Origin: Candidatus Peribacteria bacterium
GTDB taxonomy: Bacteria; Patescibacteriota; Gracilibacteria; Peribacterales; Peribacteraceae
Assembly: GCA_943350395.1 (NCBI GenBank)
Contig: CALRAD010000003.1
Span: 20,747-84,746, forward strand
Direction: 5' to 3'
DNA: 64,000 nucleotides
Part shown: piece by piece, positions 1-61,231 of the stretch
Numbering within the stretch: the first letter of the stretch is position 1
How the letters are laid out: every line of letters starts with the position of its first letter
Made by a program: the position numbers and the translations under genes
Notes under the pieces: generated by a model
Told to the model about the DNA's origin: nothing
The model's database searches: none
What the model saw: the letters and a program-made list of their open reading frames with translations, nothing else

Positions 1-390
1 CGACAGGATTGTTGAGACGATCAGTCCGGAGAGCGAGAATCCAAACAGTGCGGTGATGAGGATAGAGAGGACTGTGCCGGTGTCTTTCGTGTGCGTCAGT
101 TCGATGCCGCTTTTTGTGACGAAGATGATCAGGCAGATGGCGAAAGCGAAAATTTTCGCGAGAGAGATCAACGTGATGTCGAGAGGGATGCCGACCGACC
201 GGAAAACGGCATCGCCGTCACCGATCAGACGTGTCAGAATATTGCCGATGCCGAGTGTGGCAATCATTGCAATATAGGCTGCGACGATGAGTTTCGTCGA
301 TCTGTCCTTTCCGATGAGGAAGCTGTAGCTCATGACGACGGCGAAGAAGACGACGATGAAAAGATCCCAACTCAGTGACAGTAACATCAT
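1..390 (-). CDS. Hypothetical membrane protein, partial (runs off the left edge)
   Basis: Not in the ORF track. Manual reverse translation from ATG 390 gives MMLLSLSWDLFIVVFFAVVMSYSFLIGKDRSTKLIVAAYIAMIATLGIG..., open to base 1 with several TM segments. A TACACT -10 box lies 6 nt upstream. Confidence 0.75.
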   Translation of the reverse strand, partial: MMLLSLSWDLFIVVFFAVVMSYSFLIGKDRSTKLIVAAYIAMIATLGIGNILTRLIGDGDAVFRSVGIPLDITLISLAKIFAFAICLIIFVTKSGIELTHTKDTGTVLSILITALFGFSLSGLIVSTILS

Positions 391-396
391 GAAGAC

Positions 397-406
397 AGTG
401 TACACT
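397..406. promoter_or_regulatory. Palindromic bidirectional -10 element (AGTGTACACT)
   Basis: Reads TACACT on both strands, each exactly 6 nt from a divergent ATG (390 minus, 413 plus). Confidence 0.6.
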
Positions 407-412
407 TCCTGC

Positions 413-1282
413 ATGCGTCACGGATTCCTTCTCGTTCATAAACCCAAAGGTCCCACGAGTCACGATATCGTGGCTCAGCTTCGAAGGAGTCTCGGAGAGC
501 AAAAAATTGGTCATCTCGGCACGCTCGACCCGCTTGCTTCGGGATTGATGGTGCTTGCGGTCGGTGGCAAAGCGCTCAAGGTTGTCGAGCTTTTTAACAA
601 GTTGCCGAAAGTGTACGAGGCAGGAATTACACTTGGCACGACTAGCACGACCTACGACAGCGAAGGAGTTCTTGAGGTACAGAAGCCAAAGGCCGGGTGG
701 CTTCCTCCGGACGATGCGTCGCGCATCCAAGCTTTGATTGACGATCGATTCCTCGGAAAAATCCAGCAAGTGCCTCCTGCATTCTCCGCTATTCATGTTG
801 GCGGTGAGCGAGCGTACAAGAAAGCGATGCGAGGGGAAGATGTCGAGATGCAGGCGCGAGAGACCACCATTTCCGTGTGCAAAGTGACCGGCTATTCTTT
901 TCCGATGGTGACGCTCGAAGTGCACTGCGACAGCGGCACGTACATTCGCTCGCTCGCGCACGATCTCGGGATTAGTCTTCGTTGTGGTGGTTATCTCTCG
1001 TCGCTTGTTCGCACGGCGGTAGGGGAGTGGCGTCTCAAGAATGCGCTCGCGCCGGATGCCATTCGCTGGATCGATGTTGTGCCGCTCAAGGACATTTTGA
1101 CGGGATTTGTTTCCCGTGAACTGAGTACTTCGGAGTGGGGGGAGATTCAGCATGGTCGACCGATTGAGGGCGATATGGACCCCGAAGTGCCCTTCATTGC
1201 TTGGTTCGATGGTCTTCCGGTTGCTCTCCTCGAGAGGTCAAGAAAGAGCGAAGGGATGCTGAAACCGAGGAAGGTGTTTTGA
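413..1282 (+). CDS. truB: tRNA pseudouridine(55) synthase TruB
   Basis: Motifs HKPKGPTSHD, GHLGTLDPLASG, QVPPAFSA, CDSGTYIRSLAHDLG. Start trimmed to MRHGFLL. Confidence 0.96.
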   Translation: MRHGFLLVHKPKGPTSHDIVAQLRRSLGEQKIGHLGTLDPLASGLMVLAVGGKALKVVELFNKLPKVYEAGITLGTTSTTYDSEGVLEVQKPKAGWLPPDDASRIQALIDDRFLGKIQQVPPAFSAIHVGGERAYKKAMRGEDVEMQARETTISVCKVTGYSFPMVTLEVHCDSGTYIRSLAHDLGISLRCGGYLSSLVRTAVGEWRLKNALAPDAIRWIDVVPLKDILTGFVSRELSTSEWGEIQHGRPIEGDMDPEVPFIAWFDGLPVALLERSRKSEGMLKPRKVF

Positions 1283-1325
1283 GAAAAATTGACAGAGAAT
1301 ATAAACGATGAATAATGACATTTAT

Positions 1326-3186: not shown

Positions 3187-3819
3187 TTACTCTTTTTCGT
3201 TCGTCGCAGTCTTTCTGTCCATGCTCTCGATCGCATTTTTTTGGATCGTCCTCCAGTCGTAGGGGAACTTGAATGTCTCGAGTGCTCTGACAAGAGAGCC
3301 GAAACAGAGCCAAGTATTCGCGTGCTCATACACGAACGCATTGCCGCTTTCCTGCACTGGATTGTAGTTTGCAAGGAGTTCATCGGGGAGCGAGACCGGT
3401 ATGGTTCCGTAGCGCAGTGCATTCTCGATGTCGGTTGGGTCTGGTTCCGAGAAGAACATCGCAATGTCCGAACCGGCGAGCATAGTTCTAAGATGCTCCT
3501 CGTCATCGGGAACGATTGCCACACGGTGACTGTGTTTTTTTGCAAGTTCCAGAAAAAATTCTCCATACTTCTTCGATCCTCGTCCACGAATCACAATCGA
3601 GACTGGTAGTTCCAACATGCCCTCCATGACTGTTTCCATAAGCGGACCGCCTAGGATGTCCGTCATTCCGGTGGAAATGCAAATGACCGGTTGCTTGGGT
3701 TCAGCAACCCATCCGAGCTCTTCTTGGAGAGCTGTTTTGTTCTCCATCTTGTGTTCGATGGTGCGAGCCGAGTATTTGCGCGTAATTTTATTGTCGTACG
3801 CGGGAGAGAGAATAGCCAT
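3187..3819 (-). CDS. Glycogen/starch synthase C-terminal-half-like protein
   Basis: KMENKTALQEELG, ALRYGTIPV, SGNAFVY and DWRTIQKNA resemble the GlgA C-terminal domain. No N-terminal KxGGL domain. Confidence 0.7.
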   Translation of the reverse strand: MAILSPAYDNKITRKYSARTIEHKMENKTALQEELGWVAEPKQPVICISTGMTDILGGPLMETVMEGMLELPVSIVIRGRGSKKYGEFFLELAKKHSHRVAIVPDDEEHLRTMLAGSDIAMFFSEPDPTDIENALRYGTIPVSLPDELLANYNPVQESGNAFVYEHANTWLCFGSLVRALETFKFPYDWRTIQKNAIESMDRKTATNEKE

Positions 3820-3947
3820 CTCCTTATGATACCATATTTTGGCTTCCGGTTCACGTCTCAGGAGTTGTGAAATTTCGATATTGTTCTGCTATTATAGTTT
3901 TTCCGGAAGAGCTTTCGACACAGCTCAGAAGCCTTTAAGCTGCACGC

Positions 3948-4940
3948 ATGAAGCATCTCGTCATCGTAGACGGCCACCACTTGTTGTATCGAGCTTACTG
4001 GGCCATTCCACGTACGATGAAGACATCCAAAGGCGAACAGGTGAATACGACGTTCGGTCTTGCAACGATGCTGCTTCAAATTCTGAAGACCGAGCAACCG
4101 GACTCACTTCTTTTTTGTTTTGATGCCGATGAGAAGACTTTTCGTCATCTTGAATACGAGGATTATAAAGGAGGAAGGGCGGAAACCCCCGATGATTTCT
4201 ATCCTCAGGTGCCGAGGGCTCTCGCATTCATCGATTCGTTTGGGATCAAGAGTGTTTCTGGCAATCTCATGGAGGCGGATGACTATGCTTGCACCTATGC
4301 AAGGCGAGCCGAGGAGACTGGTGATCGGGTGACGATCGTCACGGGGGATCGCGATCTCTTCCAATTGTCCTCCGAGCGAATACGCGTCGCCATTCCCCAT
4401 AAGGGATACCAAATGCCCGAGTATATGGGTCCCGCAGAAATCTATAAGAAGTACGGGGTCACTCCTGTACAGATTCCCGCATACAAAGGCTTGGTTGGTG
4501 ATGCTTCGGATAATCTGAAGGGCGTCAAAGGTATTGGACCGAAGGCGGCAGAGGCATTGCTCCAGGAATACAGGACACTTGAAAATATCTATGAGCATCT
4601 CCCAAGCATCAAGGGATCCAGAAGAGCGCTGCTCGAGTCGGGGAGAGAACAAGCTTTCTTCTGTCAGCGCATGGCGGTGTTGAAGTGCGATATTCCTTTG
4701 CCGGTTCCGATGGATGATCTGCGGTTTAGTGACATTGATGCAGATCCTGTTCGTGCTTTTCTTTCTGAGCTCGAATTCGTATTGGTTCTCAAAAGGTTTG
4801 ATGCACTTCTTTCAACGCAATTCGGCCTTTCACATTTCAAGAGCAGTTCGGATACTGTTTTTGCTCATCAAGAAGGGCTCCCTGAGAAAACAGTTCGTTC
4901 GAAACCAATGCAGGAGAGCGCACAACTTTCTTTGCTCTAA
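3948..4940 (+). CDS. Stand-alone 5'-3' exonuclease/flap endonuclease (Pol I N-terminal domain homolog)
   Basis: Motifs VDGHHLLYRAY, YKGGR, EADD, VTGDRD, GDASDNLKGVKGIGPK. No polymerase domain. Confidence 0.9.
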   Translation: MKHLVIVDGHHLLYRAYWAIPRTMKTSKGEQVNTTFGLATMLLQILKTEQPDSLLFCFDADEKTFRHLEYEDYKGGRAETPDDFYPQVPRALAFIDSFGIKSVSGNLMEADDYACTYARRAEETGDRVTIVTGDRDLFQLSSERIRVAIPHKGYQMPEYMGPAEIYKKYGVTPVQIPAYKGLVGDASDNLKGVKGIGPKAAEALLQEYRTLENIYEHLPSIKGSRRALLESGREQAFFCQRMAVLKCDIPLPVPMDDLRFSDIDADPVRAFLSELEFVLVLKRFDALLSTQFGLSHFKSSSDTVFAHQEGLPEKTVRSKPMQESAQLSLL

Positions 4941-7786: not shown

Positions 7787-7828
7787 TTCTCTTTGCTTCT
7801 GTCTTCGTAGGCACCTACCATAGCTTTC

Positions 7829-8257
7829 ATGAAAGTATCTATTCAGCGCATCGACGCAACACTCCCGCTTCCGTCGTATCAGACCTCCGGTTCCGCTGCA
7901 TTCGATTTTGTGACTCGCGAAACGACCGTCATCCAGCCAAAGTCGATGGGGTTGGTGCCTGGCAATGTGGTGGTGAAAGTGCCTGAAGGGTATGCACTTC
8001 TCGTCTTGCCGCGTTCGTCGCTTCCGCGCAAGAAAGGCCTGATCTGCCCGCACTCACTCGGGCTTATCGATCACGACTATCACGGTCCCAAAGACGAGAT
8101 TTTCGTGCAGGTGCAGAACGTGACGGATCTCCCGGTGACAGTCGAGAGAGGGGAGAGAATCGCCCAGGGGCTATTCGTAAAGATAGATCGTGCGGAGTGG
8201 CAGGAAGTGGCTTCGCACGGCGCAGAAACCCGCGGTGGATTCGGGAGTACGGGCTGA
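7829..8257 (+). CDS. dut: dUTP diphosphatase
   Basis: Motifs GSAAFD, PRSS, GLIDHDYHG, ERIAQ, RGGFGSTG. Confidence 0.96.
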   Translation: MKVSIQRIDATLPLPSYQTSGSAAFDFVTRETTVIQPKSMGLVPGNVVVKVPEGYALLVLPRSSLPRKKGLICPHSLGLIDHDYHGPKDEIFVQVQNVTDLPVTVERGERIAQGLFVKIDRAEWQEVASHGAETRGGFGSTG

Positions 8258-13271: not shown

Positions 13272-13931
13272 TTATCCATATGCAATAACCAAGCCGACCA
13301 CATGTTTCACCCCCGCCTTCTTCAGCGTTTTTGCACACGCCTCAAGTGTCGCTCCAGTCGAGCTGATATCATCGACCAGGAGTACGCAAGGTGGGGGATT
13401 TTTCGTGGTGGAGGTGAACGCATCGAGAACAGCCGTCAGTCTCTCTTCTTTGTTTCGCCATGCCTGGTGACCTGTGCTCCGTGTCCGTCTCAGCAGAGAT
13501 TGCACTGACCATTGTCTTTGCTTACCGATTTCCTCGGCAAGAACTTGTGCCTGGTTGAAACCGCGCTCAAACATTCTGGTCCAGTGGAGCGGGACGGGAC
13601 AGAGGACAGTCTCGGAGTTTTTCATCGTGCTTGGCAGTAAGAGAAGCCCGGGCAATGATTTGACGATGTGAGAGGCAAGTTCCGGTCCGAGTGCAGCAAT
13701 TCGTTTGTACTTGAACGTGCGGATGGCTTTCTGGAGGAGGGGAGAAGATTGATAGCTCCCTGCGGCAATCAGGCAATCGAGAGAGCGAATGCCTTTTTTC
13801 AGAAGCAGCTGCCGATCGAGTCGAATAGGATACAGCCGAAGGCGCTTTCGTTCCTCATCGGTGATCCACTCGCCTTCGTCACCCAGAAGCGAGTGTTTGG
13901 GGAAGAGGAGATCGAGAAAAAACTGAAACAT
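13272..13931 (-). CDS. comF: ComF family phosphoribosyltransferase-like competence protein
   Basis: Motifs LDLLFP, PVPLH..R..ERGFNQA, LLVDDISSTGATL. Start trimmed because the longer ORF overlaps a tRNA. Confidence 0.9.
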   Translation of the reverse strand: MFQFFLDLLFPKHSLLGDEGEWITDEERKRLRLYPIRLDRQLLLKKGIRSLDCLIAAGSYQSSPLLQKAIRTFKYKRIAALGPELASHIVKSLPGLLLLPSTMKNSETVLCPVPLHWTRMFERGFNQAQVLAEEIGKQRQWSVQSLLRRTRSTGHQAWRNKEERLTAVLDAFTSTTKNPPPCVLLVDDISSTGATLEACAKTLKKAGVKHVVGLVIAYG

Positions 13932-13963
13932 ACTACTTAGTATAGCGTTGTGCTGTGTTCTTA

Positions 13964-16769: not shown

Positions 16770-16792
16770 GAAAGATCTGCTACTCTTTGCCT

Positions 16793-18595
16793 ATGCCAGA
16801 TTCTGACGATTCCCTCGCAATACTCCGACACTCACTTGCTCACGTTCTTGCGCAGGCGGTGGAGACGCTTTGGCCCGGGACAGAACGCGCAATCGGACCT
16901 GCCATTGATACAGGGTGTTACTTCGATTTTCTCTTCAGTCAGCCGATCACTGATGCCGACTTTCCAAGGTTGGAAAAAGAGATGCGATCGATTATCAACA
17001 GAGGACAGACTTTTCGTTGTGATGAACTGAGTGTTGCGGATGCGAAGAAGTTTTGGCGCGAGCGAAAGCAGCGCTTCAAGGTCGAGATGGTCGAAGATCT
17101 CGAGAAGAAAGAAAAAGTGAAGACTGTCACGAATTATGCGAACATCGATGCGCAAGGCAAAGAAACCTACGTTGACCTCTGTCGTGGCGGACACGTCGAG
17201 AATCTGAAAGAAATTCCCGCGGACGGTTTTAAGATTATGCACCTTGCCGGTGCGTACTGGCGCGGAGATGAAAAGCGTGAACAGCTCACGCGCATCTATG
17301 TCGCTGCGTTTCCGAGCAAAGAAGAGCTGAAGGCACATCTGCTGATGCTTGAAGAAGCGAAGAAGCGAGATCATAGAAAGCTCGGGAAAGAGCTCGATCT
17401 CTTCACATTCTCCGAGATGGTGGGCCCCGGACTGCCTCTTTGGACACCCAGAGGTACGGTGATTGTCGATGCGATCGAGGAACTCGCGCACGAGATGGAA
17501 GCCGCTGCCGGTTATGTTCGCGTGCGAACGCCGCACATCGCCAAAGGAAAGCTCTATGAGCAGACCGGTCACCTCGCGCACTACCAAACGTCTATGTTTC
17601 CACCGATGAAATTGGACGGGGAAGAAGAATATTATTTGAAGCCAATGAACTGTCCGCACCATCATCAGATTTTTGCGTGTCAGCCGAGAAGCTATCGCGA
17701 TTTACCGCTTCGACTTGCCGAGTATGGTCAGTGTTATCGTTATGAGGATTCCGGAGCTCTTTTCGGATTGATGCGCGTTCGCTCACTCTCCATGAACGAT
17801 GCGCATATTTATTTGCGTGAAGATCAATTTGAGGAAGAATTTAATTCAGTGATCGATCTGTACATCACATACTTCAAACTTTTCGATATCAAGAAGTACG
17901 TCATGCGTCTCTCGCTTCACGATAAGGCTGAACTTGGAAAGAAGTACGTCAATCAGCCGGAGCTGTGGCTGAAGACAGAAGAAATGGTACGAAATGCCAT
18001 GCGCAAGAAAGGCGTGAATTTTGTCGAAGTTCCGAACGAAGCTGCGTTCTACGGTCCAAAGATTGACGTGCAGATTTGGTCTGCCATAGGCAGAGAATTC
18101 ACGCTCGCTACAAATCAGGTCGACTTCGATGTGCCCGGCAAGGTCGGACTGAAATATGCAGACAAAGACGGTACTGAGAAAGTGCCTCTCTGCATTCACA
18201 GAGCCCCGCTTTCGACGCACGAGCGCTTGGTCGGCTTCCTGATAGAGCAATTCGCAGGTCTCTTCCCGCTTTGGCTCGCGCCTGTGCAAGTCGCACTCGT
18301 ACCGGTTGCTGCAAATCACGAGGACTATGCCAAGAAACTTGCCGCAGATTTGAAGAAACTCGGCATGCGAGTCGAATTCATGTCCTCGGAGGAATCACTC
18401 GGCAAGCGCGTTCGTGAAGGAGAGAAGATGAAGATTCCCTACATTCTCGTGATGGGAGACAAAGAAGTAGGGGGGACGTCAGTGACCGTTCGTAATGTGA
18501 AGTCGAAGGCGCAGGTGACGGTTTCTGTCAGTGAATTTACGTCAAAGACGATGGAAGATATCAAAGAGAGAAGGCTCGAGGCGTCGATTGGATAG
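16793..18595 (+). CDS. thrS: Threonine--tRNA ligase (no N-terminal TGS domain)
   Basis: Motifs RHSLAH, DLCRGGH, RDHRKLG, KPMNCPHH, AAFYGPKID. Confidence 0.97.
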   Translation: MPDSDDSLAILRHSLAHVLAQAVETLWPGTERAIGPAIDTGCYFDFLFSQPITDADFPRLEKEMRSIINRGQTFRCDELSVADAKKFWRERKQRFKVEMVEDLEKKEKVKTVTNYANIDAQGKETYVDLCRGGHVENLKEIPADGFKIMHLAGAYWRGDEKREQLTRIYVAAFPSKEELKAHLLMLEEAKKRDHRKLGKELDLFTFSEMVGPGLPLWTPRGTVIVDAIEELAHEMEAAAGYVRVRTPHIAKGKLYEQTGHLAHYQTSMFPPMKLDGEEEYYLKPMNCPHHHQIFACQPRSYRDLPLRLAEYGQCYRYEDSGALFGLMRVRSLSMNDAHIYLREDQFEEEFNSVIDLYITYFKLFDIKKYVMRLSLHDKAELGKKYVNQPELWLKTEEMVRNAMRKKGVNFVEVPNEAAFYGPKIDVQIWSAIGREFTLATNQVDFDVPGKVGLKYADKDGTEKVPLCIHRAPLSTHERLVGFLIEQFAGLFPLWLAPVQVALVPVAANHEDYAKKLAADLKKLGMRVEFMSSEESLGKRVREGEKMKIPYILVMGDKEVGGTSVTVRNVKSKAQVTVSVSEFTSKTMEDIKERRLEASIG

Positions 18596-18625
18596 ACTTG
18601 TCCGTTTCCTGCTATTCTTCCTTCG

Positions 18626-19549: not shown

Positions 19550-19550
19550 A

Positions 19551-43443: not shown

Positions 43444-44520
43444 TTATATTTTTTGTGATGAAATTTCTTTTTGCAAATTTCGCATGTGTTTCAGAATCAC
43501 CCCCATATTCTGCAAGCACGCGAGAGTTTCTCCGTAGCGTTCGCCGATGCGAAGCAGATGATGCAGGTAGCTTTTGAGATGTTTGCGGCTTGTTGGAGCA
43601 GGTGAGTCTTGGTCGATCGGCGTGTGATCATTCTGGAATTCCTGACGACGGATACGGAGTTTCTTCCCTTCGGAAAGCCATACGTTTCCATGCCTGGCTT
43701 CGCGCATCGGAGAGACACAATCGAACATATCGATCCCGAGGCGCACGGCTTCCCGTATTTGATGCAGTTCGCCTACACCCATCAGGTAGCGTGGTTTATT
43801 TTCGGGAAGCAGAGGACAGATTGCTTGCAGCACAGCGACCATTTCGTCTTCTGTTTCCCCGACGGCGAGTCCTCCGAGTGCGTACCCGTCGAAGCCGATT
43901 GCGATCAGTTCTTCTGCACATTTCTTCCGGAGATCGAGTTCGAGACCGCCCTGCACAATACCAAACAGCATCGGTGAACTTTTTCTCTCGACCTTCAGCC
44001 GTTCATGTTCCTCTTTGCATTGCTTCGCCCACTTGAGAGTTCGGTCGACAGCCTTGATCTGATCTGCGCGAGGTGCAGTGGACGGTGGGCATTCATCGAA
44101 GCACATGATGATGTCCGCACCCAGTTTGTGTTGGACATTGGTCGCTTCGATCGGACCCAGAAAGAGGGGATTTCCGTTTCGGTGATCTTTAAATGCGACA
44201 CCTTCGTCCGTGATTGAACGAATATTCTCGAGAGAGAAGACTTGAAATCCGCCGGAATCAGTGAGGATAGGCTTCTCCCAGCGGATGAATGAGTGCAGTC
44301 CGCCGGCGTCGCTTACGATGTTCTCTCCCGGAGAGAGATGCAGATGATATGTATTGCAGAGGAGGATGTCAGCACCCAGACCCAGAAGATCATCGAACGT
44401 AATTCCCTTCATTGCTCCTGCCGTAGCGACCGGCATGAAAAACGGCGTGGGTATGTTGCCGTGAGGAGTTTGTATTTCCCCGTTTCTGCCGCAGGAAGTG
44501 CTCTTTTTCAGATCGAACAT
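43444..44520 (-). CDS. tgt: tRNA-guanine transglycosylase
   Basis: Motifs TPFFMPVAT, NTYHL, LTDSGGFQVFSL, FDEC, GIVQGG, GGLAVGE, RYLMGVG, DMFDCV. Confidence 0.96.
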   Translation of the reverse strand: MFDLKKSTSCGRNGEIQTPHGNIPTPFFMPVATAGAMKGITFDDLLGLGADILLCNTYHLHLSPGENIVSDAGGLHSFIRWEKPILTDSGGFQVFSLENIRSITDEGVAFKDHRNGNPLFLGPIEATNVQHKLGADIIMCFDECPPSTAPRADQIKAVDRTLKWAKQCKEEHERLKVERKSSPMLFGIVQGGLELDLRKKCAEELIAIGFDGYALGGLAVGETEDEMVAVLQAICPLLPENKPRYLMGVGELHQIREAVRLGIDMFDCVSPMREARHGNVWLSEGKKLRIRRQEFQNDHTPIDQDSPAPTSRKHLKSYLHHLLRIGERYGETLACLQNMGVILKHMRNLQKEISSQKI

Positions 44521-44628
44521 GCAGACAGTGTACCCTTGTTTTGGTTCCTCTTGCCTCTTCGGATTTTTATCACTTTTTATTATTTTACTGTGCGATAATT
44601 CCTCCGAATTCTTTCCCCCTTCCCTTCT

Positions 44629-45157: not shown

Positions 45158-45385
45158 TTAGATCAATGCAGTCTTGAGATTATTCCTAATGTGAATTTCC
45201 ATTTCAGTAAAGACAATCCGAGCATCTGCAGTTCCTGCTTCCGCCTTTATCAGAGCTTGCCTCGGACTGATCGATTCATTACCGATCCTGATGCACTGAG
45301 CATCAGGTGCAGGTGAAGTAGCGTGGTACTCCCGTAACAGAGCGATTTCTGTTTGATTGAGCGGTTCCGAGTTAGTTGCATTCAT
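45158..45385 (-). CDS. Small hypothetical protein (75 aa)
   Basis: TACTCT 6 nt before the ATG; ends at the bidirectional terminator. Confidence 0.55.
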   Translation of the reverse strand: MNATNSEPLNQTEIALLREYHATSPAPDAQCIRIGNESISPRQALIKAEAGTADARIVFTEMEIHIRNNLKTALI

Positions 45386-45421
45386 GCAAATAGAGTACAG
45401 AATGCTATTCTAAATGCAAGC

Positions 45422-46069: not shown

Positions 46070-46195
46070 ACGGAAGTGAGGAAAGAAATTCAGTGTCTAT
46101 GTTGTCATTATTATAGCGAAAATCATGAGTGTGCGGCAGTTCTCGTAATGTTCATAGTATGTTTTTTTGATGTATTGAGTAGTTTGGTTGTCATC

Positions 46196-47282: not shown

Positions 47283-47298
47283 AGTTATTATAAATTAT

Positions 47299-48072
47299 AT
47301 GGCAACAGAGTATGACCCAGGGACTCCAGCGGCCCGTTGCAAATATAGGCGTCTATCATCCAATGAAAGTGAGGTTGTCGCAAAATTTGCGGCATTAACG
47401 GACGAGGAGAGAACACAGATTCGGGAGTTGTTCGGATCGAGAGATTCGAGAGCCAGAGAGATTGTTGAATGTAGAATTCTCCACAATCCAGATCGCACGC
47501 TTGAAAGTCTCGGTGAACAATTCGATGTCAAAGCGGAACGCATTCGTGTCCAGCAAAATAATGTACTGCATCAGCTTGATGATTTTTTACTGCAGCGAGA
47601 ATATGCACTGTTGAGAGACACACCTGAACAGGTGTCTGTACTGAGTATTCGGTCGCTTGGTTTATCCAACAGAGGATGTCAGATTCTTCAGCGCTTAGGG
47701 TATGTCACGGTCGGTGATCTAAAACCACTGCAAGGGAGCCGTTATATTTGCCCCGCTTTAGGAAAGGACGATCAGGAAATTTTTCGAACCAAAATGACCG
47801 AATTAGGTTACATGCAGTATCCCGTTCGGGTTCATCAAATGCCGGAGCAGGATCCGTACAATGGTCCGAGACAACAGGTGCTTGATCGGGAAATTTCGAG
47901 ATTTCCTCTGTCCGTTCGAGCACGGAGAGCTGTCAGTCGGAAGAGTTGTATGACCGTTCGTGATTTTCTTGCTGTGAGTTCTTCTGATTTTCGTTCCCTT
48001 GCAGGAATCGGAGATACAACACAGATGGAACTTGACGCTTTTCGTCAGCAGGTTCTTTCAATCCCGGAATAG
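47299..48072 (+). CDS. Sigma-70 region 4 plus two RNA polymerase alpha-CTD-like domains
   Basis: RTLESLGEQFDVKAERIRVQQ (sigma4 HTH); IRSLGLSNRGCQILQRLGYVTVGDL and LSVRARRAV...TVRDF...GIGDTT (alphaCTD HhH). Promoter TTGACA-17-TATTAT-7nt-ATG. Confidence 0.8.
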   Translation: MATEYDPGTPAARCKYRRLSSNESEVVAKFAALTDEERTQIRELFGSRDSRAREIVECRILHNPDRTLESLGEQFDVKAERIRVQQNNVLHQLDDFLLQREYALLRDTPEQVSVLSIRSLGLSNRGCQILQRLGYVTVGDLKPLQGSRYICPALGKDDQEIFRTKMTELGYMQYPVRVHQMPEQDPYNGPRQQVLDREISRFPLSVRARRAVSRKSCMTVRDFLAVSSSDFRSLAGIGDTTQMELDAFRQQVLSIPE

Positions 48073-48185: not shown

Positions 48186-48572
48186 TCAAAACTTGAACAC
48201 ATCCGCATGGCTCTCGATTCTCTGTTTCATCTCCCAGAGCTGTTCGATCATGTTCGCAAGCTGTGGGCAGGCATCCGGAGTCTGCTTGGATTTGTAGAAG
48301 CCGTAGATATGCTCCAGAAGCGTTGCGATATTCAGCATCGCGAGATCCGTCTTCGTTTTCCACTCGGGAGCGAGGGTGTTGTACACCTCTTTATTCAGAA
48401 ATGATTCCGGCTGCGTGATGTCGATCTCACCGTTCTCGAAGAGCTTTGTGATCGTGATGCAGAAATTCTTGTGCTCGTCTCCCATATCGCCGCCCATGGG
48501 TGTTCCGGCTTTCTTCTGCTCCGCTTCGGAGAGAGGCGAGGGGTTTGCCATAGAGGAAGCGAAGTCGGACAT
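48186..48572 (-). CDS. Hypothetical protein
   Basis: Divergent from recG. Start chosen from TACACT 8 nt upstream. Confidence 0.7.
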   Translation of the reverse strand: MSDFASSMANPSPLSEAEQKKAGTPMGGDMGDEHKNFCITITKLFENGEIDITQPESFLNKEVYNTLAPEWKTKTDLAMLNIATLLEHIYGFYKSKQTPDACPQLANMIEQLWEMKQRIESHADVFKF

Positions 48573-48598
48573 CAGGAGAGAGTGTATCATAATTCTAC

Positions 48599-50644
48599 GT
48601 GCACTTCTCCGATCTCCTCACTCCGGCACGTCTCAGGACAACGCAGGCATTCGTTGATGCACTGGAAGCGATGAATATAAAAACCGTTCAAGACCTCCTG
48701 CTCAATTTTCCAAGAGCGTACGAAGATCTGAGTCAGGTCACGACGATTCTCGATGCGCCGCTCAATGAAAAAGTCACGTTACGGGGCACGATCGGCAACC
48801 TCAAGCTCGTGCGGACGAGAACCAGAAAGCAGCTTGTGCAGGCGAAATTCAGTGATGAGACGGGAGAGACGCTCGACACCATTTGGTTCAATCAGCCACA
48901 CATTATGAGGATGCTTTCGGAAGGTCAGTCGGTGACGCTTACGGGCAAGATTTCAGAGAACGGATACAAGCTCCAGATGCAGAGTCCGAGTTTCGAGGAT
49001 GGCAGTCGCCAGATGACGCTGCACGCGGGGAGGATTGTCGCGGTGTATGCGCAATCCGAACAGATCACGACACGGTGGCTTCGGGAGAAAATGGCGCTCG
49101 TCAAAGATTGTATTCAGGAACTGAAGGAAACATTGCCAGCAGACATTGTTGAATCCGAGAAGCTCCTTCCGAGAAGTGATGCGATTCTCGAACTTCATTT
49201 TCCGACAACTCCTGAAAAATTGGAGGAAGCGAGAGCGCGTATGGCATTCGAAGAGATGTATGCTGTGCAGATCGAGGCGCTCGAGAGAAAGAAAGTGTGG
49301 CAGGGGGAGAAGCAGGAGAGACTGAAAGTTCCGATGGACATCGAACTTGTGAAAGCGTTCTTCGCGTCACTTAATTTCACACCGACCGGAGGCCAGAAAG
49401 TTGCCATCTACGAAATTCTCAAGGACATGGAACAAGACCGACCGATGTCACGGCTTCTCGAGGGTGATGTCGGATCCGGAAAGACGCTCGTCGCCGTCGC
49501 CGTCATCGAAAATGTGCTGAGTAGACGCGGTCAGTGTGCCATCATGGTGCCGACTGAAGTGCTCGCAAGGCAACACAGCGCGACGATCACGAGGTTACTT
49601 CTCAATTTTCATACGTACATTCAGAGTGATGCTTGCTCGAGTGCAGGGATCAAAGCTGAACATCTCAAGACAATGCGTGCTCCGAGCGTTGCTCTCCTGA
49701 CGGGTTCCGTCCCGCAGTCCGAGGCGGAAGAGATTCGGCGCAGGCTCGCATCGGGTCTTATCGATGTCGTCATCGGCACGCATGCACTTATCGAAGATAC
49801 GGTGCAATTCAAAGATCTCCGCCTTGCGATCGTCGACGAACAGCATCGTTTCGGTGTGGCACAGAGGCAGCGCCTGAAAGACAAAGGCAATCCGCATTTT
49901 CTTGCGATGACGGCGACCCCGATTCCGAGAACACTCGCTCTCACGGCGTACGGAGATCACGATCTGTCGGTTCTTCTCGAGAAACCGGGACAGCGTAAAA
50001 AAATCATCACGAAGGTCGTTTCCCCAAGAGAGAGGCATACGGTCGATCTCTTCATCGACCATCAGATCGGGGAGGGGAGGCAGGCGTATGTCATCTGTCC
50101 TCTCATCTCGGAATCCAAGGCGGACGAGATGGCAGAGATCAAGAATGTTGAAGCTGAAGAGAAGCGTCTGAAGGTCGAGTTTCCGAGGCGCAGAATCACC
50201 AAGCTGCACGGCAAGATGTCGCCGGATGAAAAGAATGCCGTGATGGCGGAATTCAAGGATAGGCAGTTCGATATTCTCGTGTCTACATCAGTTATTGAAG
50301 TCGGCATCGATGTTCCAAACAGCACAATCATTGTGATCGAAGGAGCGGAGAGGTTCGGACTGTCGCAGCTCCATCAGTTTCGAGGACGAGTCGGAAGAAG
50401 CGATATCCAGAGTTACTGCTACCTGTTCACAACGTCAGCCTCGCAGGCGCATTCCGAGCGTCTGAAAGCCATGGAACAGCATGATTCCGGCTTCCTGCTT
50501 GCGGAAATCGACCTGAAGATCCGGGGACCCGGGGAGCTCTTCGGCACGCGCCAGAGTGGCATTCCGGATCTCCGGTTCGGCGGACTGCTGAATGTCGATT
50601 TGGTGGTGAGAGCGAGAAAGGCGGCGCAGAAAATGCTATCATGA
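48599..50644 (+). CDS. recG: ATP-dependent DNA helicase RecG
   Basis: Wedge domain; motifs RLLEGDVGSGKT, DEQHRFG, MTATPIPRT, QLHQFRGRVGR, RGPGE. Confidence 0.97.
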   Translation: MHFSDLLTPARLRTTQAFVDALEAMNIKTVQDLLLNFPRAYEDLSQVTTILDAPLNEKVTLRGTIGNLKLVRTRTRKQLVQAKFSDETGETLDTIWFNQPHIMRMLSEGQSVTLTGKISENGYKLQMQSPSFEDGSRQMTLHAGRIVAVYAQSEQITTRWLREKMALVKDCIQELKETLPADIVESEKLLPRSDAILELHFPTTPEKLEEARARMAFEEMYAVQIEALERKKVWQGEKQERLKVPMDIELVKAFFASLNFTPTGGQKVAIYEILKDMEQDRPMSRLLEGDVGSGKTLVAVAVIENVLSRRGQCAIMVPTEVLARQHSATITRLLLNFHTYIQSDACSSAGIKAEHLKTMRAPSVALLTGSVPQSEAEEIRRRLASGLIDVVIGTHALIEDTVQFKDLRLAIVDEQHRFGVAQRQRLKDKGNPHFLAMTATPIPRTLALTAYGDHDLSVLLEKPGQRKKIITKVVSPRERHTVDLFIDHQIGEGRQAYVICPLISESKADEMAEIKNVEAEEKRLKVEFPRRRITKLHGKMSPDEKNAVMAEFKDRQFDILVSTSVIEVGIDVPNSTIIVIEGAERFGLSQLHQFRGRVGRSDIQSYCYLFTTSASQAHSERLKAMEQHDSGFLLAEIDLKIRGPGELFGTRQSGIPDLRFGGLLNVDLVVRARKAAQKMLS

Positions 50645-50648
50645 TGTT

Positions 50649-51011
50649 ATGCCGATTGAACTCACATCCACACAGCTCGATCTGGCGGAGAAGCTGTCGC
50701 AGCACTCGAAAGATGCCTGCGAGCTCGTGGACCTCAAGTGTCAGAAGTGTGAGCCGAAGAATTTTTATCTGACTGTGCACCGTTATTACGGCAGAGTGCA
50801 GGGGATGACGGCAGAAGTCGATCGTTGCATTGACTGGTGCATGAGCAAAGGGAAGATGGTCTTTACCGCACAGCGTTTCGGCAACTGGTGCCAGAACAAA
50901 GTGAAGTGGGATAGGGAGGAGGAGATCAAGAAGCAGGAAATGGCAAAGCTGAAAACAGGAACTGTCTATCAGCAGGAAGATTACGCAAGACGGATGATGC
51001 CGAGAGGTTAG
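50649..51011 (+). CDS. Hypothetical protein (120 aa, Cys/Trp-rich)
   Basis: TATCAT 6 nt before the ATG; CIDWC...RFGNW. Confidence 0.7.
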   Translation: MPIELTSTQLDLAEKLSQHSKDACELVDLKCQKCEPKNFYLTVHRYYGRVQGMTAEVDRCIDWCMSKGKMVFTAQRFGNWCQNKVKWDREEEIKKQEMAKLKTGTVYQQEDYARRMMPRG

Positions 51012-54001: not shown

Positions 54002-55771
54002 TTAAAACTTCTGCTTCTCCCACAGCTCAAAGAACCTCCCTCTCTTTGCGTACAGTTCGTCAAAGCTTCCCGATTCGATGATCTTTCCGCCCTCCAGGAC
54101 GAGAATGCGGTCCATTTCTTTGATGGTCGTGAGTCGGTGTGCGATAACGACCGCCGTGACGTTCTGGAAGAAACGATGCAGCGAATCTCTGATTTTCGCT
54201 TCGGACTCCAGATCGAGATGCGAGGTGGCTTCGTCGAGGAAGAGGATCTCCGGCTGCTTGAAGACTGCTCTCGCGATGCCGACGCGCTGCTTCTCGCCAC
54301 CGGAGAGTTTGATGCCTTTCTCTCCGATGAGTGTCGAGAGTCCGTTGGGCAAACGATCGAGGAAGTCTCGCACGTGAGCGGTTTCGATTGCCTGCGACAG
54401 GAGTGTTTTGTCTTCCGCATGGGAAATATTGGCGAGCGTGATGTTATCGAGCAGCGTGAAATTGAAGACTTCGGTGTCTTGGAGAACGACTGCGGTCTTC
54501 CGGAAGAAATCACTCCGACGGATGTCTCGAAGCGGTACGTCGCCGATTGCGATATTGCCAACGTAATTTTCGTGTTCCTTGAGAAGCAATTTGAAGAGCG
54601 TGGATTTGCCGGCGCCCGATACGCCGACGATGCCGATACGTTCGCCTCGTCGTATCGTGAAAGAAATTTCGTCGAGTACTTTCTGCTTGCCGTACGAGAA
54701 CGAGAGATTCGAAACGGCAATGCTGTTCCATGACACAGGGAACGACTGCTTGCCATGCTCTTCATCGATACGGACAGGCTCATGCAGGATATCGCGCATT
54801 CTCGAGATGCCGTACTTCGAGACGATGAAATCAAGGGAGAGATCCGAGAGTTGCTGGATCGATTCCCAAATGTAGTTGAAGTAGTTGAAGAAGAGCACTA
54901 AAAATCCGACGTCGCGTCTGCCATGAAAGACGTCGAGAGCGATGAAACACATGATGCCGACACGGAAGCACTGCGCCCAGAGATTGAGGACGATGTTTCG
55001 GATGCGGAAGCATCGAATGCGTACGAGGATTTTTTGGAAGAGATATTCGATATTTTTGCTGATGATGCCGAGGAGTCCTTCCTGCATGCCGAGAACTTTG
55101 ACGCTCCGGACATTGCTTAAGCCTTCGAATACGACACCTTGTAGTTCTTCATCAGCCGTATTCACCATGTGCTCTGCCCGCCCCGCCCGCCCTGTAAGAA
55201 CGTACGAGAATGTAAAATAGGTGAGGAGGAAGAAAAGCGTGGCTGCGCCCACGAACGGATCGAATGCGGCGAGGATTGGGATCATTCCTCCGAAGCGCAC
55301 GAATGCAGGGATGCCGGTCCGAAACCAGATGCGAGAAAGTCGGTTTATTCCTTCTGTTCCTCGTTGGATCTTCTTGAGCTTCGATCCTGCATTCTCTCTT
55401 TCATGCCATGTGAGATCGAGCCTGAAGAGGTGAGCGATTGTCGCAAGTTGCATGTTGAGTGCCGTACGCTCCGCGATGCGATTGCCGATGGCATCGACGA
55501 CCTGGTCACAGCTGTAGTGCCAGATTGATACGAGGACCCAGAGGATGAAGATTGTTCGGATCTTCTCCATCGTTCCTGCTCCGATGTCCTCGGTGAGAAG
55601 ATTCACGAGTGTCGCCATCGCAAACGGCGGATAGAGCCAGACGATTGCGCCGGTGAGTGCGAGCACGCAGGTACCGAGGAACGTCCAGCGACGTTTGCCC
55701 AAAAACTCCCAGAGATCGCGGATGAGCGCGATTGTCGAATATGCCGGCGTTTCAGTATTTTCCGTCCTCAT
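54002..55771 (-). CDS. ABC exporter, fused permease and ATP-binding domains (MsbA-like)
   Basis: TM domain plus GVSGAGKST, LSGGEKQR, LDEATSHLD, IAHRL. Confidence 0.93.
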   Translation of the reverse strand: MRTENTETPAYSTIALIRDLWEFLGKRRWTFLGTCVLALTGAIVWLYPPFAMATLVNLLTEDIGAGTMEKIRTIFILWVLVSIWHYSCDQVVDAIGNRIAERTALNMQLATIAHLFRLDLTWHERENAGSKLKKIQRGTEGINRLSRIWFRTGIPAFVRFGGMIPILAAFDPFVGAATLFFLLTYFTFSYVLTGRAGRAEHMVNTADEELQGVVFEGLSNVRSVKVLGMQEGLLGIISKNIEYLFQKILVRIRCFRIRNIVLNLWAQCFRVGIMCFIALDVFHGRRDVGFLVLFFNYFNYIWESIQQLSDLSLDFIVSKYGISRMRDILHEPVRIDEEHGKQSFPVSWNSIAVSNLSFSYGKQKVLDEISFTIRRGERIGIVGVSGAGKSTLFKLLLKEHENYVGNIAIGDVPLRDIRRSDFFRKTAVVLQDTEVFNFTLLDNITLANISHAEDKTLLSQAIETAHVRDFLDRLPNGLSTLIGEKGIKLSGGEKQRVGIARAVFKQPEILFLDEATSHLDLESEAKIRDSLHRFFQNVTAVVIAHRLTTIKEMDRILVLEGGKIIESGSFDELYAKRGRFFELWEKQKF

Positions 55772-55823
55772 GCACCGAGTCTACAGCAAGGCGCGAATGC
55801 CTGTCTGCGGCTATACTGAGCCT

Positions 55824-56501
55824 ATGGTCATCTCCGAAATTTTCCACTCACTTCAGGGCGAAGGACGAACAGTCGGAACACCGTGCGTGTTCGTGCGACT
55901 CGGCATGTGCAATTTGAAGTGCAATTTTTGCGATACGCCGTATACGTGGAAAGAAGGACATGAGGATTACAGTGACGAAGCGAACGAACGTATCATGGAA
56001 GCTGTCTCAAAAATTCTAGAGGAATTTCCGTACACCCATACGATCGTCTGGACCGGTGGTGAGCCGATGATGCAGCAGCGCGATATTGTCGCCGCGATCG
56101 ATTATCTGAATCAGCGATTTGCTTCCCGAAGACTTGAACACGAAGTGGAAACGAACGGGACGATTCTCGCGCAGCCCGTATTCGATGAGCGCATCGATCG
56201 CTACAACTGTTCGCCGAAAACCGCGATGTCAGGGAATTCGCAGTACTCGGTGAAGCTGAAGAACTTCGAGAAGACCACGTATAAGTTTGTGGTCGGCGAC
56301 AAAGATCATTGCGCCGAGGCTTTAGCGGAAATCGAGCGTCAGAAACTCCCGAGAGGGCGGTGCATGTTCATGGTGCTCGGGACGACAGCGAAAGAGATGC
56401 AGGAGCGTTCGCCAGCGATTGCCGAAGTCTGCAAGAGAGAGGGGATAGCGCTGTGTCTGCGACTACAGTGTATTATTTGGGGTGACAAACGCGGCGTATG
56501 A
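55824..56501 (+). CDS. queE: 7-carboxy-7-deazaguanine synthase QueE (radical SAM)
   Basis: Motifs EIFHSLQGEG, CNLKCNFCDT, TGGEP, ETNGT, SPK. Coupled to queC. Confidence 0.92.
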   Translation: MVISEIFHSLQGEGRTVGTPCVFVRLGMCNLKCNFCDTPYTWKEGHEDYSDEANERIMEAVSKILEEFPYTHTIVWTGGEPMMQQRDIVAAIDYLNQRFASRRLEHEVETNGTILAQPVFDERIDRYNCSPKTAMSGNSQYSVKLKNFEKTTYKFVVGDKDHCAEALAEIERQKLPRGRCMFMVLGTTAKEMQERSPAIAEVCKREGIALCLRLQCIIWGDKRGV

Positions 56502-58697: not shown

Positions 58698-58719
58698 AGA
58701 AACATGCGCAGTGCAAGAC

Positions 58720-58748
58720 TTGCGAAAAATATGAAAATGAAGTATAAT
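58720..58748 (+). promoter_or_regulatory. Sigma70-type promoter TTGCGA-17-TATAAT
   Basis: Near-consensus -35 and perfect -10, 30 nt upstream of ATG 58779. Confidence 0.7.
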
Positions 58749-58778
58749 GTAATCAATACAAACTTCCTTTTCTCTTCT

Positions 58779-60620
58779 ATGAAGAACTTTTCTTTCGCGG
58801 AACAGCGTTTGATCGGCTATGAACAGGTGCAAAGAGAAAATCTATCGGTTGCTTCCGAAAAAGCTGAAGTCGATCCCCGTGATCGAAGTGTCGAAATCAA
58901 TGATGCTCGAGCAAAATTGCAGAGGCAGATTAAAGAATTGGAATCAAGAACAGGCAAGATGGGTCCGGATCTTGCGAACAAATGGCAGAACTATGTTGGG
59001 AATCGCAGGGGTGAGATTGAAACAGCAATCAAGAAAAGCAACGATGGAACCGGGACGCAGCAGGCTGCTCTCGACGCGATTGAGAGGTGCTCGAAGGGGC
59101 TGAAGCCTGTTCTCGAGTACAAGTTTGAGGATGCTCTTCGGCAAGCTCCCTACACTATCGAGATGTCCCGCGAGGGTGTGCGTGTGACGGTTCCGAATAC
59201 AGGAGGAAAATACAAACCGTATTTGCGTACGGACAGGGGATTCTCTCAAAATGGAACGCTCGATGCATCAGGCAGGTATGAGTGGAAGATTCCCGGACCA
59301 TTGGCAACTGATGCTGTGCTTGTGGGATCCTACAATGATGCAGGAGTGGCGACGGAGACCCAGATTGATGCAAGGAAATCGACTCCGACCGACATCGCGA
59401 AAGGTCCAATGATTTCAATCGACAGTACGATTTCGGAAGCAAAGCCGAAGTTGAAGGAAACGGCTCCCGAGAAAAAGCGGATGGAGGAAGTAAAGCAGGC
59501 AGTGCCTCTTTCTCCTGGCGAACAAGTGAATGCAGACCTTTCCGATGATGAGAGAAAAGTCATGAAGCGATGGGATCTTGGGCCACTTCAAAGCACCACG
59601 GACGGTGAAAAGCTTGTTTCAAGCTATGAAAGAGCGGGCTTGAGATTGGATCAACTTCAGAAGCAATTCTCAGACTTGAAATTGGGAGGAGTTGCTCCTG
59701 TCAGGGAAGGCGAAAAAACTGAGGACCAAAAAGCAATGGAGGCAGTTCAGGCCAGATATGCTGCCTTTCGACAAAAGAGGGCAAACGTAGAGACAGCGTA
59801 TCAAGCGAAAGATAATGCGAGTAGATACGTGAATCAGGCATTGCCTGAAACGAAGGCAGCTTTTGATCAGGCTGCATCTGTTTATACAGAGCGTCGAGCA
59901 GAGTTGCAGGATGAGCCTGGCAAAATTATTGCAGAGATCCAACGAGTTTCAGAGCAGTTTGCAAACACTGTTCAGAGTACTTCGGAAGGAAACAACGTTG
60001 CTAAAAAAATTGAGGCTGCACTGAAGTTACCTGCAGCTGAAAAGGTTGATGCGCTCGTGAATGGATTAGAGCTACCGGATGAGAAACTCATTCTTGATTT
60101 GAAGCAGATACTCAATGCATGTGACGACGAAGTGAAGACAGATGTTCAGCAACCCGATCTCAGTGAACTTCATCCCGATATGGATTTCGGCGGAAAGCTG
60201 ATCGTTTACGATGCAGCAGTCTATAATCTCCGCGAGAAAGGAGGCAGTTTCACCAAATTAGATCCGATGGTTGCAAAGGCTGAGAGAGTTGCCAGCCAGT
60301 TGCAAAAAACGGAACGCCCCGAAGAAATTGTTGCTCAAACTTTGAAATTTGCTCGTAGACAAATGTATCTGGAGGCTCTGAAGAAACTTGTTAAGGAATT
60401 GAAAACTGCGAGACAATCGAGAGAAGATCTTTCGGTTGGTACGCTTGATAAGAGAATGGAGCAATCCATGACCGATGCGGAAAAATATCGCTTCTTTCAA
60501 GTGAAGAATATGGGCGAATCCGAGATGCAATTCTTGGGACAAAGAAGGGGGGATCAGACAAAAATTGAGGAAATTCAAAAATTGATCGATAAGCAAAAGA
60601 AAGAAGAAAAGAAATCCTGA
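58779..60620 (+). CDS. Large coiled-coil hypothetical protein with N-terminal AEQRLI motif
   Basis: Starts MKNFSFAEQRLIGYEQ; E/K/Q-rich helices with a short beta-rich segment. Confidence 0.8.
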   Translation: MKNFSFAEQRLIGYEQVQRENLSVASEKAEVDPRDRSVEINDARAKLQRQIKELESRTGKMGPDLANKWQNYVGNRRGEIETAIKKSNDGTGTQQAALDAIERCSKGLKPVLEYKFEDALRQAPYTIEMSREGVRVTVPNTGGKYKPYLRTDRGFSQNGTLDASGRYEWKIPGPLATDAVLVGSYNDAGVATETQIDARKSTPTDIAKGPMISIDSTISEAKPKLKETAPEKKRMEEVKQAVPLSPGEQVNADLSDDERKVMKRWDLGPLQSTTDGEKLVSSYERAGLRLDQLQKQFSDLKLGGVAPVREGEKTEDQKAMEAVQARYAAFRQKRANVETAYQAKDNASRYVNQALPETKAAFDQAASVYTERRAELQDEPGKIIAEIQRVSEQFANTVQSTSEGNNVAKKIEAALKLPAAEKVDALVNGLELPDEKLILDLKQILNACDDEVKTDVQQPDLSELHPDMDFGGKLIVYDAAVYNLREKGGSFTKLDPMVAKAERVASQLQKTERPEEIVAQTLKFARRQMYLEALKKLVKELKTARQSREDLSVGTLDKRMEQSMTDAEKYRFFQVKNMGESEMQFLGQRRGDQTKIEEIQKLIDKQKKEEKKS

Positions 60621-60646
60621 TCAGCAAAATTTCTACCATTTATCCG

Positions 60647-61231
60647 ATGCACACCCTCACACACCGTCTCCGGCTCTTTGCCCATCAGCATGACGATATT
60701 CCTGCATTCCATGCGGCGTATCTCGTCACGACGTTTCTTGTGGCAGCGGTGTTCAGTCTTGGTTATTTCGCGATTCTTATCGTGCTGCACATGATGCTCG
60801 ATTACGTGAAGTATCGAGATTATTTCCGCTTTCCGCTGCGGTTGACTCTGAAGGCGATGATGCTCGAGAGCATCGTCGACATCGCACTTCTCTGTCTCTC
60901 GCTGACCCTCTCGGTGTACCTGAGCACGGGTCTCGCCCTCTCTCTTGTCTCCGGCGTTTTTCGCTCGAGTCTCACGCTCATCGCCGCTCTTGGAACGATT
61001 ATTCCGAAGATTCATATTCTCGAGCACCTTCTCGCCGTATTTCTCGATGTGCATTCGTACATGTATACGCCGCATGCCGACATTCGGCGACCGTTGTCCA
61101 AGATCAACAAGATCGCGCTCGGAACGATCATCGTGACTGTCCTTCTGCTCCTCCTTTCGATTGCACTCTTTCACGGACGAGAAGCAGAACTTTTGGATCT
61201 GATACTCAGTCGACTGTCTCTGAAGCTGTAA
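60647..61231 (+). CDS. Hypothetical membrane protein
   Basis: 4-5 TM segments; TACCAT 7 nt before the ATG. Confidence 0.75.
   Translation: MHTLTHRLRLFAHQHDDIPAFHAAYLVTTFLVAAVFSLGYFAILIVLHMMLDYVKYRDYFRFPLRLTLKAMMLESIVDIALLCLSLTLSVYLSTGLALSLVSGVFRSSLTLIAALGTIIPKIHILEHLLAVFLDVHSYMYTPHADIRRPLSKINKIALGTIIVTVLLLLLSIALFHGREAELLDLILSRLSLKL

Follow-up and report, generated by a model that had tools for sequence, protein, structure and literature searches.

A −10-type hexamer beside start codons and probable leaderless mRNAs in a Peribacteraceae genome without Shine–Dalgarno signals

How does a bacterium begin its proteins when many of its genes carry a promoter-like hexamer, instead of a ribosome-binding site, directly before the start codon? 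This question is raised by a 64,000-nt stretch of DNA (C3:20747-84746, here called the window) from a Peribacteraceae metagenome-assembled genome (MAG) of the candidate phyla radiation (CPR), which comprises 1.246 Mb in 27 contigs at ~51% GC and is 97.7% complete. An initial annotation of the window described a TANNNT box 6–8 nt before most start codons and read it as a sign of pervasive leaderless, gene-by-gene transcription. All 21 examples quoted there are present with the hexamer and spacer given, and our analysis confirms that the box is real. Its interpretation is partly supported: a sigma-70-type −10 box abuts the start codon at ~36–45% of genes, and it probably gives rise to leaderless messenger RNAs (mRNAs).

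Position and frequency of the box

Genes were called across the genome (G000 in our genome sample) with a simple codon-usage and longest open reading frame (ORF) procedure, which returned 957 genes (minimum length 100 aa) that together span 84% of the sequence. We define the spacer as the number of nucleotides between the TANNNT hexamer and the start codon. Two controls were used: permutation of the 40 upstream bases in 200 rounds, which keeps their composition, and in-frame ATG, GTG, and TTG codons inside genes (n = 12,766).

The positional enrichment is clear against both controls. At a spacer of 6 nt, TANNNT precedes 125 of 947 first start candidates genome-wide, vs 20.0 ± 4.6 (maximum 33) in the shuffles; over spacers 6–9 the count is 254 vs 79.5 ± 8.7. 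Expressed by position, the hexamer occurs before 13.2% of 948 starts at spacer 6, before 4.0–5.8% at spacers 7–9, and before ~1–2.6% elsewhere, and the internal start-like codons show it at 0.2–1.0% per position. Searched as its reverse complement, the motif does not peak at 6–9 nt; a lone bump, at 10, comes from the TA of that very box. One-mismatch variants (nANNNT, TnNNNT, and TANNNn) likewise give no clear positional peak, and isolated cases do occur (23771 and 20507).

When any candidate codon within the first 50 codons is allowed, a box at spacers 5–9 accompanies 230 of the 471 genes that reach 300 aa or more, vs 25 of 471 matched internal regions. Among all genes the figure is 457/947, vs 163–246/947 at equally wide displaced spacer windows. 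The share of genes with a box is thus about 36% once the local background is removed and about 45% once the coding background is removed, a large plurality and not the "most genes" of the initial annotation. In the window itself, about half of the called genes carry a box (29 of 55 at spacers 5–9, 26 of these at 6–8); tgt and the ORF at 55824 join them once their starts are corrected.

The box had also been proposed as a guide to start codons, and it performs well in two cases. For lepA, the box-chosen start at 34639 lies 10 codons inside the longest ORF, and its Met is that of the conserved N-terminus M-x-[IR]RNFCIIAHI. Among 53 loci of relatives, 40 have ATG or GTG as the homologous codon, and LepA alignments to relatives mostly start at query residue 8–11. 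A strict box at 5–9 nt is found in 18 of the 53 loci, and a −10-like hexamer at 9–10 nt is present in many of the rest. For tgt, the start at 44520 gives a 358-aa protein with the TGT domain from about residue 11, dropping 77 residues (87 by another count against the longest ORF) that lie outside that domain. A third case, at 56591, fails and is taken up below. In this lineage, starts called by the longest ORF or by Shine–Dalgarno-trained models are frequently wrong; in the window those of lepA, tgt, eno, and truB are off by 10–77 codons.

Promoter hallmarks and loss of the Shine–Dalgarno system

Sequences aligned on the hexamer display the surroundings of a sigma-70-type promoter. TTG stands at gaps of 16, 17, and 18 nt in 35, 33, and 18 of 505 matches, vs 3–15 at other gaps, and TTGACA with at most 2 mismatches lies upstream in 142/505, vs 56/505 at a displaced gap. 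Within the hexamer, T1, A2, and T6 are conserved, and the interior bases follow the pattern TA[T/C]A[A/C]T. Two bases ahead of the box, G reaches 42%, and a TGn extension is present in 118 of 449 cases. Boxes that lie inside an upstream ORF retain these features, with TTG at 16–18 nt in 19/106 and TGn in 24/106.

The box is not confined to protein-coding genes. Of the 45 transfer RNA (tRNA) genes, 22 have TANNNT 6–13 nt ahead of their mature 5′ end, vs 4–10 of 45 in equal windows further upstream; the box is therefore not tied to translation. Judged from these positions, primary tRNA transcripts would have 5′ leaders of about 0–7 nt. RNase P RNA is encoded (C16:18425-18778), so such short leaders are presumably still trimmed.

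The preference for particular spacers depends on the start codon. Counts at spacers 6, 7, 8, and 9 are 162, 77, 65, and 58 for ATG and 20, 12, 5, and 12 for GTG; those for TTG are flat (6, 8, 7, and 5). A spacer-6 peak restricted to ATG and GTG fits the use of the codon's first base as a purine start nucleotide. RNA polymerase starts ~7 bases downstream of a −10 box, and with a 6-nt spacer the first base of the start codon is the seventh position after the box. In line with the −10-like reading of the initial annotation, these hallmarks mark the motif as a predicted −10 element of a sigma-70-type promoter and not a ribosome site; at the modal spacer, RNA polymerase would usually initiate on the A or G that opens the codon.

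The genome gives no sign of Shine–Dalgarno (SD) initiation. Neither GGAG/GAGG/AGGA nor AGGAG/GGAGG is enriched at any position from −25 to −4 genome-wide, and the tetramers reach at most 2.2% per position, not above the internal controls. The 3′ end of the 16S ribosomal RNA (16S rRNA) reads ...GGAUGGAACAUCUCCUUA, with UCUCC in place of the CCUCC core; the tail ...AACAUCUCCUUA has no CCUCC core. No SD pairing is possible, because the mRNAs are without SD sequences and the 16S tail carries UCUCC. The genome encodes IF2 (in the window) and IF3, together with a short S1-like protein (C9:7749-8801), a 442-aa frame that scores 258 bits, below the rpsA cut-off, and matches rpsA profile positions 5–347. 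bS21 (PF01165) was not found across the 97.7%-complete genome.

The same UCUCC change is present in G051, a genome of 60% GC from another genus and the only other member of the family with a 16S sequence in our sample. Elsewhere in the class, the anti-SD core is CACCUCC in most families. Several variants were observed among class 16S sequences (L082-L110): AUCUCC in the window's family, the same C-to-U change in G032 (family f16), ACCGCC in f8, CCACCCC in f26, and CCUCU in f17 and f28.

The leaderless-type box layout is family-wide. LepA from the window is 70–97% identical to its counterparts in Candidatus Peribacteria/Peribacteraceae MAGs, which places the genome in the Peregrinibacteria branch of the CPR (Patescibacteria). 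Across 56 Peribacteria-like lepA loci a box precedes 133 of 281 genes, vs 18 of 220 internal controls, with SD sequences at control level (73/281 vs 65/220). Twenty lepA loci of other phyla show the reverse, with the box at 20/88 vs 26/83 and SD sequences at 53/88 vs 22/83, so the method is able to detect SD signals. In 400 kb of G051, the spacer-6 peak recurs (25/272), and 104 of 272 genes have a box, vs 40–48 at displaced windows and 7 of 178 internal controls. For five other families, the 80-kb samples are too small or A+T-rich to judge: G077 has a small bump at spacers 6–7 (7 and 6 vs 0–2), G002, G017, G033, and G073 have no clear spacer peak, and SD enrichment is seen in none of the five within these small samples. 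Overall, positional enrichment, promoter hallmarks, SD absence, the altered 16S tail, and conservation in the family are all computed observations.

We consider it likely, with good though not complete confidence, that these −10 boxes produce leaderless mRNAs. RNA polymerase would begin on the A or G of an ATG or GTG placed 6 nt, or less often 7–9 nt, after the box, and ribosomes would recognize the 5′-terminal AUG directly. The transcription start, leaderless translation, and independent use of internal promoters are what we infer from the computed observations.

Packed genes and alternative explanations

The initial annotation extended leaderless expression to tightly packed co-oriented genes, each transcribed on its own. 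The first half of this proposal holds: boxes precede packed co-oriented genes as often as divergent genes. With motif-guided starts, a box is found at 191 of 350 divergent genes and at 102/203, 50/114, 54/92, and 40/91 co-oriented genes with gaps of >100, 41–100, 16–40, and 0–15 nt, respectively; among overlapping genes it is found at 12 of 78. Under the first-candidate rule, the corresponding values are 114/350 for divergent genes, 36/88 for gaps of 16–40 nt, and 33/99 for gaps of 0–15 nt. Some boxes are built into the end of the preceding gene: an upstream TAA or TAG supplies the first three bases of the box in 16 co-oriented pairs, and the stop codon begins at the last T of the box in 11. 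Boxes within the 3′ end of the preceding gene suggest that many internal genes of packed arrays probably receive their own nested leaderless transcript.

The second half, transcription gene by gene, fares less well. Terminator-like sites are at chance frequency (22 vs 21.0 ± 4.1 in window positions 14001-34000), so a separate transcription unit per gene is not indicated; nested transcripts produced by read-through are at least as likely and offer the simpler account. This is one of several points that weigh against the leaderless reading. Complete two-hexamer promoters are not enriched either (12 vs 13.5 ± 4.4 in the same 20 kb); most of these predicted promoters hence have no good −35 element. 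At gaps of at most 15 nt, the −35 signal is weak, with TTG at 16–18 nt in 4 of 52 cases. A pyrimidine at −1 is not specific to box genes (77% vs 71% of genes without a box). The gene caller is crude and its choice of starts favors the motif; the unbiased first-candidate count is lower, at 269/947. As a guide to starts, the box also misleads at 56591 (TACTGT, 8 nt), a probable false positive that trims 9 positions from the QueC profile. A search of sequencing runs with window positions 14100-24000 matched 0 RNA runs and only 3 DNA runs, all from one lake-water study; the assembly may derive from 2 of these 3.

Some of these points favor a rival explanation, in which boxes serve as true leaderless promoters before first and divergent genes but are weak or unused within tight co-oriented arrays. 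Such arrays would be expressed mainly as polycistronic mRNAs, with downstream genes translated by coupling or re-initiation, and transcription would not truly run gene by gene. The chance-level terminators, the weak −35 signal at short gaps, and the lack of enrichment of full promoters all agree with it, as do 28 co-oriented pairs without a box whose ATGA-type 4-nt overlap is the classical layout for coupling. However, the box is as frequent in tight arrays as before divergent genes, far above the 5% internal-coding background, and boxes inside upstream ORFs keep their TGn and TTG features. Moreover, an internal cistron without an SD sequence has no other obvious initiation signal. We therefore regard this explanation as unlikely, while still giving it some weight.

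Much less probable is that TANNNT acts in the mRNA as a non-SD ribosome-binding signal behind ordinary leaders, similar to the "group B" organization of GeneMarkS-2, and is not a promoter. A genome devoid of SD sequences might be expected to have some substitute, and the motif stands before internal as well as first genes, which PMC6028130 treats as a criterion for a ribosome-binding site over a promoter. Yet the same box lies close before 22 of the 45 tRNA genes, which are untranslated; it is accompanied by TGn and a −35 TTG at 16–18 nt; its invariant positions and interior fit the −10 consensus; and TTG starts lack a spacer peak. In highly expressed genes with leaders, moreover, the place of an SD sequence is taken by a different start-anchored word, UUCC at −14, as described below. 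An origin of the pattern as a by-product of A+T-rich intergenic DNA and upstream TAA/TAG stops can be dismissed: although TANNNT occurs more often ahead of genes than within them and stop codons do form part of the box in the pairs counted above, a sharp single-spacer peak exceeds all 200 composition-preserving shuffles, is absent from the reverse complement, recurs in the 60%-GC relative, and belongs to a box equally frequent before divergent genes, which have no upstream stop. Leaderless transcription from −10 boxes remains our preferred reading.

The boxes of the window are collected in Table 1. Pfam identifies truB, ftsA, ftsZ, dut, dnaA, thrS, lgt, eno, infB, rplS, lepA, tgt, clpP, miaA, recG, and queC among its housekeeping genes, and five tRNA genes are present. 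The names used in the initial annotation stand for truB, dut, thrS, lgt, C39, eno, the polysaccharide pyruvyl transferase (PS_pyruv_trans), lepA, tgt, miaA, recG, and the ABC exporter, all by Pfam; "glgA-like" (3187-3819) and "comF" (13272-13931) have no Pfam match at 1e-5.

Table 1. Boxes and related features in the window (window coordinates; spacer and start codon as defined in the text).
Feature	Coordinates (strand)	Element	Spacer (nt)	Start codon	Start position	Remark
Gene running off left window end	388..402 (-)	TACACT	6	ATG	390	
truB	401..415 (+)	TACACT	6	ATG	413	
210-aa protein	3817..3831 (-)	TGn-TATCAT	6	ATG	3819	no Pfam match
5′-3′ exonuclease gene	3936..3950 (+)	TAAGCT	6	ATG		
dut	7816..7831 (+)	TACCAT	7	ATG	7829	TTG 17 nt upstream
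219-aa gene	13929..13944 (-)	TATACT	7	ATG	13931	no Pfam match
thrS	16781..16795 (+)	TGn-TACTCT	6	ATG	16793	23 nt past dnaA stop
lgt	18613..18628 (+)	TGn-TATTCT	7	ATG	18626	30 nt past thrS
135-aa ORF	20025..20039 (+)	TATCCT	6	ATG	20037	TTG 17 nt upstream
C39-like peptidase gene	21296..21310 (+)	TAGAGT	6	ATG	21308	box TAG is upstream stop codon (gap 9 nt)
eno	22086..22101 (+)	TACCAT	7	ATG	22099	20 nt past upstream gene
One-mismatch variant	23769..23783 (-)	TGn-AATAAT	6	ATG		TTGACA 16 nt upstream
587-aa gene	30880..30896 (-)	TGn-TATAAT	8	ATG		
202-aa gene	31101..31115 (+)	TATCCT	6	GTG		
Polysaccharide pyruvyl transferase gene	32344..32358 (+)	TGn-TAGACT	6	ATG	32356	
139-aa gene	33296..33311 (+)	TACACT	7	ATG		4-nt overlap with upstream gene
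lepA	34627..34641 (+)	TGn-TATTCT	6	ATG	34639	
650-aa gene	40476..40490 (+)	TGn-TAAAAT	6	GTG	40488	TTG 17 nt upstream
tgt	44518..44532 (-)	TACACT	6	ATG	44520	
75-aa ORF	45383..45397 (-)	TACTCT	6	ATG	45385	
miaA	46298..46313 (+)	TATGAT	7	ATG	46311	
257-aa protein	47286..47301 (+)	TATTAT	7	ATG	47299	TTGACA 17 nt upstream; 16 nt past miaA
128-aa gene	48570..48586 (-)	TGn-TACACT	8	ATG	48572	
recG	48585..48601 (+)	TATCAT	8	GTG	48599	
120-aa gene	50637..50651 (+)	TGn-TATCAT	6	ATG	50649	4 nt past recG; recG stop overlaps last T of box
ABC exporter gene	55769..55783 (-)	TAGACT	6	ATG	55771	
225-aa ORF (55824-56501)	55812..55826 (+)	TATACT	6	ATG		"queE" is the initial annotation's label only
194-aa gene	60634..60649 (+)	TACCAT	7	ATG	60647	26 nt past upstream gene
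tsaE-containing gene	62235..62249 (-)	TGn-TATTAT	6	ATG		
Stop codons built into next gene's box	21296-21298; 50642-50644					
tRNA genes with close box	1946; 23881 (-); 53920					
UUCC word in clpP leader	46080..46083 (-)	UUCC at -14..-11				G-poor leader

Several other features of the window were observed. Two divergent gene pairs have starts only 22 bp (390/413) and 26 bp (48572/48599) apart; in both, the −10 hexamers of opposite strands stand face to face with a 2-bp overlap, sharing TA (397-406, where the minus-strand hexamer occupies 397-402, and 48581-48590). The protein at 47299-48072 (+), whose gene has a perfect TTGACA-17-TATTAT-7-ATG promoter, matches Pfam only in the RNA polymerase alpha C-terminal domain (residues 192–244); the whole protein scores 31.6 bits vs a cut-off of 23.8, and no single stretch passes alone. 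A full rpoA is located elsewhere (C10:20123-21103). Within positions 14001-34000, the lone strong terminator-like hairpin, with 11 pairs, lies just past infB (27781-27805, +). A giant ORF of 1401–1450 aa (8271-12476, −) has no Pfam match at 1e-5, and positions 8001-12000 show a strong AT skew. ARAGORN reports a 94-nt tRNA-Thr (53937-54030, −) that is antisense to and overlaps tRNA-Pro (53920-53995); it is without Rfam support and is probably a false call.

A second start-anchored word and relation to known systems

Genes without a box comprise the 28 co-oriented pairs with 4-nt overlaps counted above and a leadered group whose last ~20 bases are C/U-rich and G-poor. In these leaders, TTCC with its first T at −14 precedes 21 of 318 genes, vs 2.7 ± 1.6 in shuffles of the same 25 bases, and 49 of 318 have it between −16 and −12, vs 13.9 ± 3.6. 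It is the sharpest positional peak among all 4-mers. Forty of the 49 genes were scanned with Pfam, and those identified include genes typical of high expression: rpoB, rpoC, rpoA, tuf, groEL, clpB, clpP, rplA, two SLH proteins, a giant DUF11 protein, metK, gdh, and transaldolase. G051 has a TTCC peak as well (6, 10, and 7 genes at −15, −14, and −13).

Upstream of tuf (L274-L303), 24 of 29 family genomes have TTCC at −17 to −11, and no G occurs from −22 to −5. The block from T(−16) to C(−10) carries 1.0–1.8 bits, vs 0.1–0.9 in its flanks except for a T at −1 (1.3 bits). Many of these regions contain, by eye, a −10-like TAGACT ~45–65 nt upstream; if this is the tuf promoter, the UUUUCCC block would lie within the mRNA. 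TTCC at −14 is not visible in the relatives' lepA-neighborhood loci (4 matches), where orthologues are few and mostly box-bearing. The idea that the word is an alternative promoter element was rejected: alignment on TTCC reveals neither a −35-like block nor a constant distance to any −10 box. Pairing with GGAA of the 16S tail is conceivable on paper, but it would place the duplex nearer the AUG than the sequences show, and the base in fifth position is C (57%), not A (22%).

The UUCC word is a candidate SD substitute or enhancer. We tentatively suggest, as a possibility that we do not favor strongly, that Peribacteraceae without SD initiation use two modes of starting translation. Ordinary housekeeping genes, packed internal ones included, would be leaderless and expressed from minimal −10-only promoters, and tuf, groEL, rpoA/B/C, clpB, clpP, rplA, and S-layer-type genes would keep a leader in which UUUUCCC, ~9–10 nt before the AUG, serves as a new SD substitute. 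Its reader might be the short S1-like protein or the lineage-specific GGAA of the 16S tail.

These results highlight that CPR bacteria can run a genome without an SD system, which is relevant to the way in which translation initiation evolves in reduced genomes. For leaderless mRNAs, for promoters inside arrays, and for the UUCC element alike, a clear outcome can be predicted in a Peribacteria metatranscriptome or 5′-end library. What we describe is a known, textbook mechanism, as yet unpublished for this lineage, on entirely computational evidence. A literature search found no paper on leaderless organization in CPR bacteria (supplementary tables were outside its reach), and Peribacter is not named in the main text of Amin et al. 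2018 (PMC6107228).

The closest parallel is group C of GeneMarkS-2, described by Lomsadze et al. 2018 (PMC6028130) for Actinobacteria and Deinococcus-Thermus, where a Pribnow box lies 6–8 nt from gene starts in 25–50% of operons. The present genome resembles that group, as portrayed there, in having TANNNT 6–8 nt from the start of a large share of genes (~36–45%), with the mRNA taken to begin at the start codon. In the same source, leaderless genes of Mycobacterium tuberculosis are reported to start seven bases into the sequence that follows the −10 box; the promoter-to-ATG geometry seen here is that of M. tuberculosis and Deinococcus deserti, theirs mapped by differential RNA sequencing (dRNA-seq) and ours read from sequence. 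The differences are also clear. According to that paper, other genes of group C genomes use SD-type sites, whereas the present genome lacks any SD signal and has a mutated anti-SD; unlike in that description, the box is here equally frequent before tightly packed internal genes and first genes. The MetaGeneMark-2 preprint describes nearly all code-11 genomes of group C as high in GC, whereas the present lineage belongs to the CPR and the genome has 51% GC. Loss of the anti-SD in Peribacter is itself published, in an article whose accessible sections define class iv as SD-scarce organisms without CCUCC (PMC10783764), and our genome agrees with that account in lineage, in a 16S tail without CCUCC, and in the near-absence of SD sequences. 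Those sections state no SD replacement for Peribacter; beyond them, we find a −10-type box at about two fifths of genes and a UUCC class at −14.

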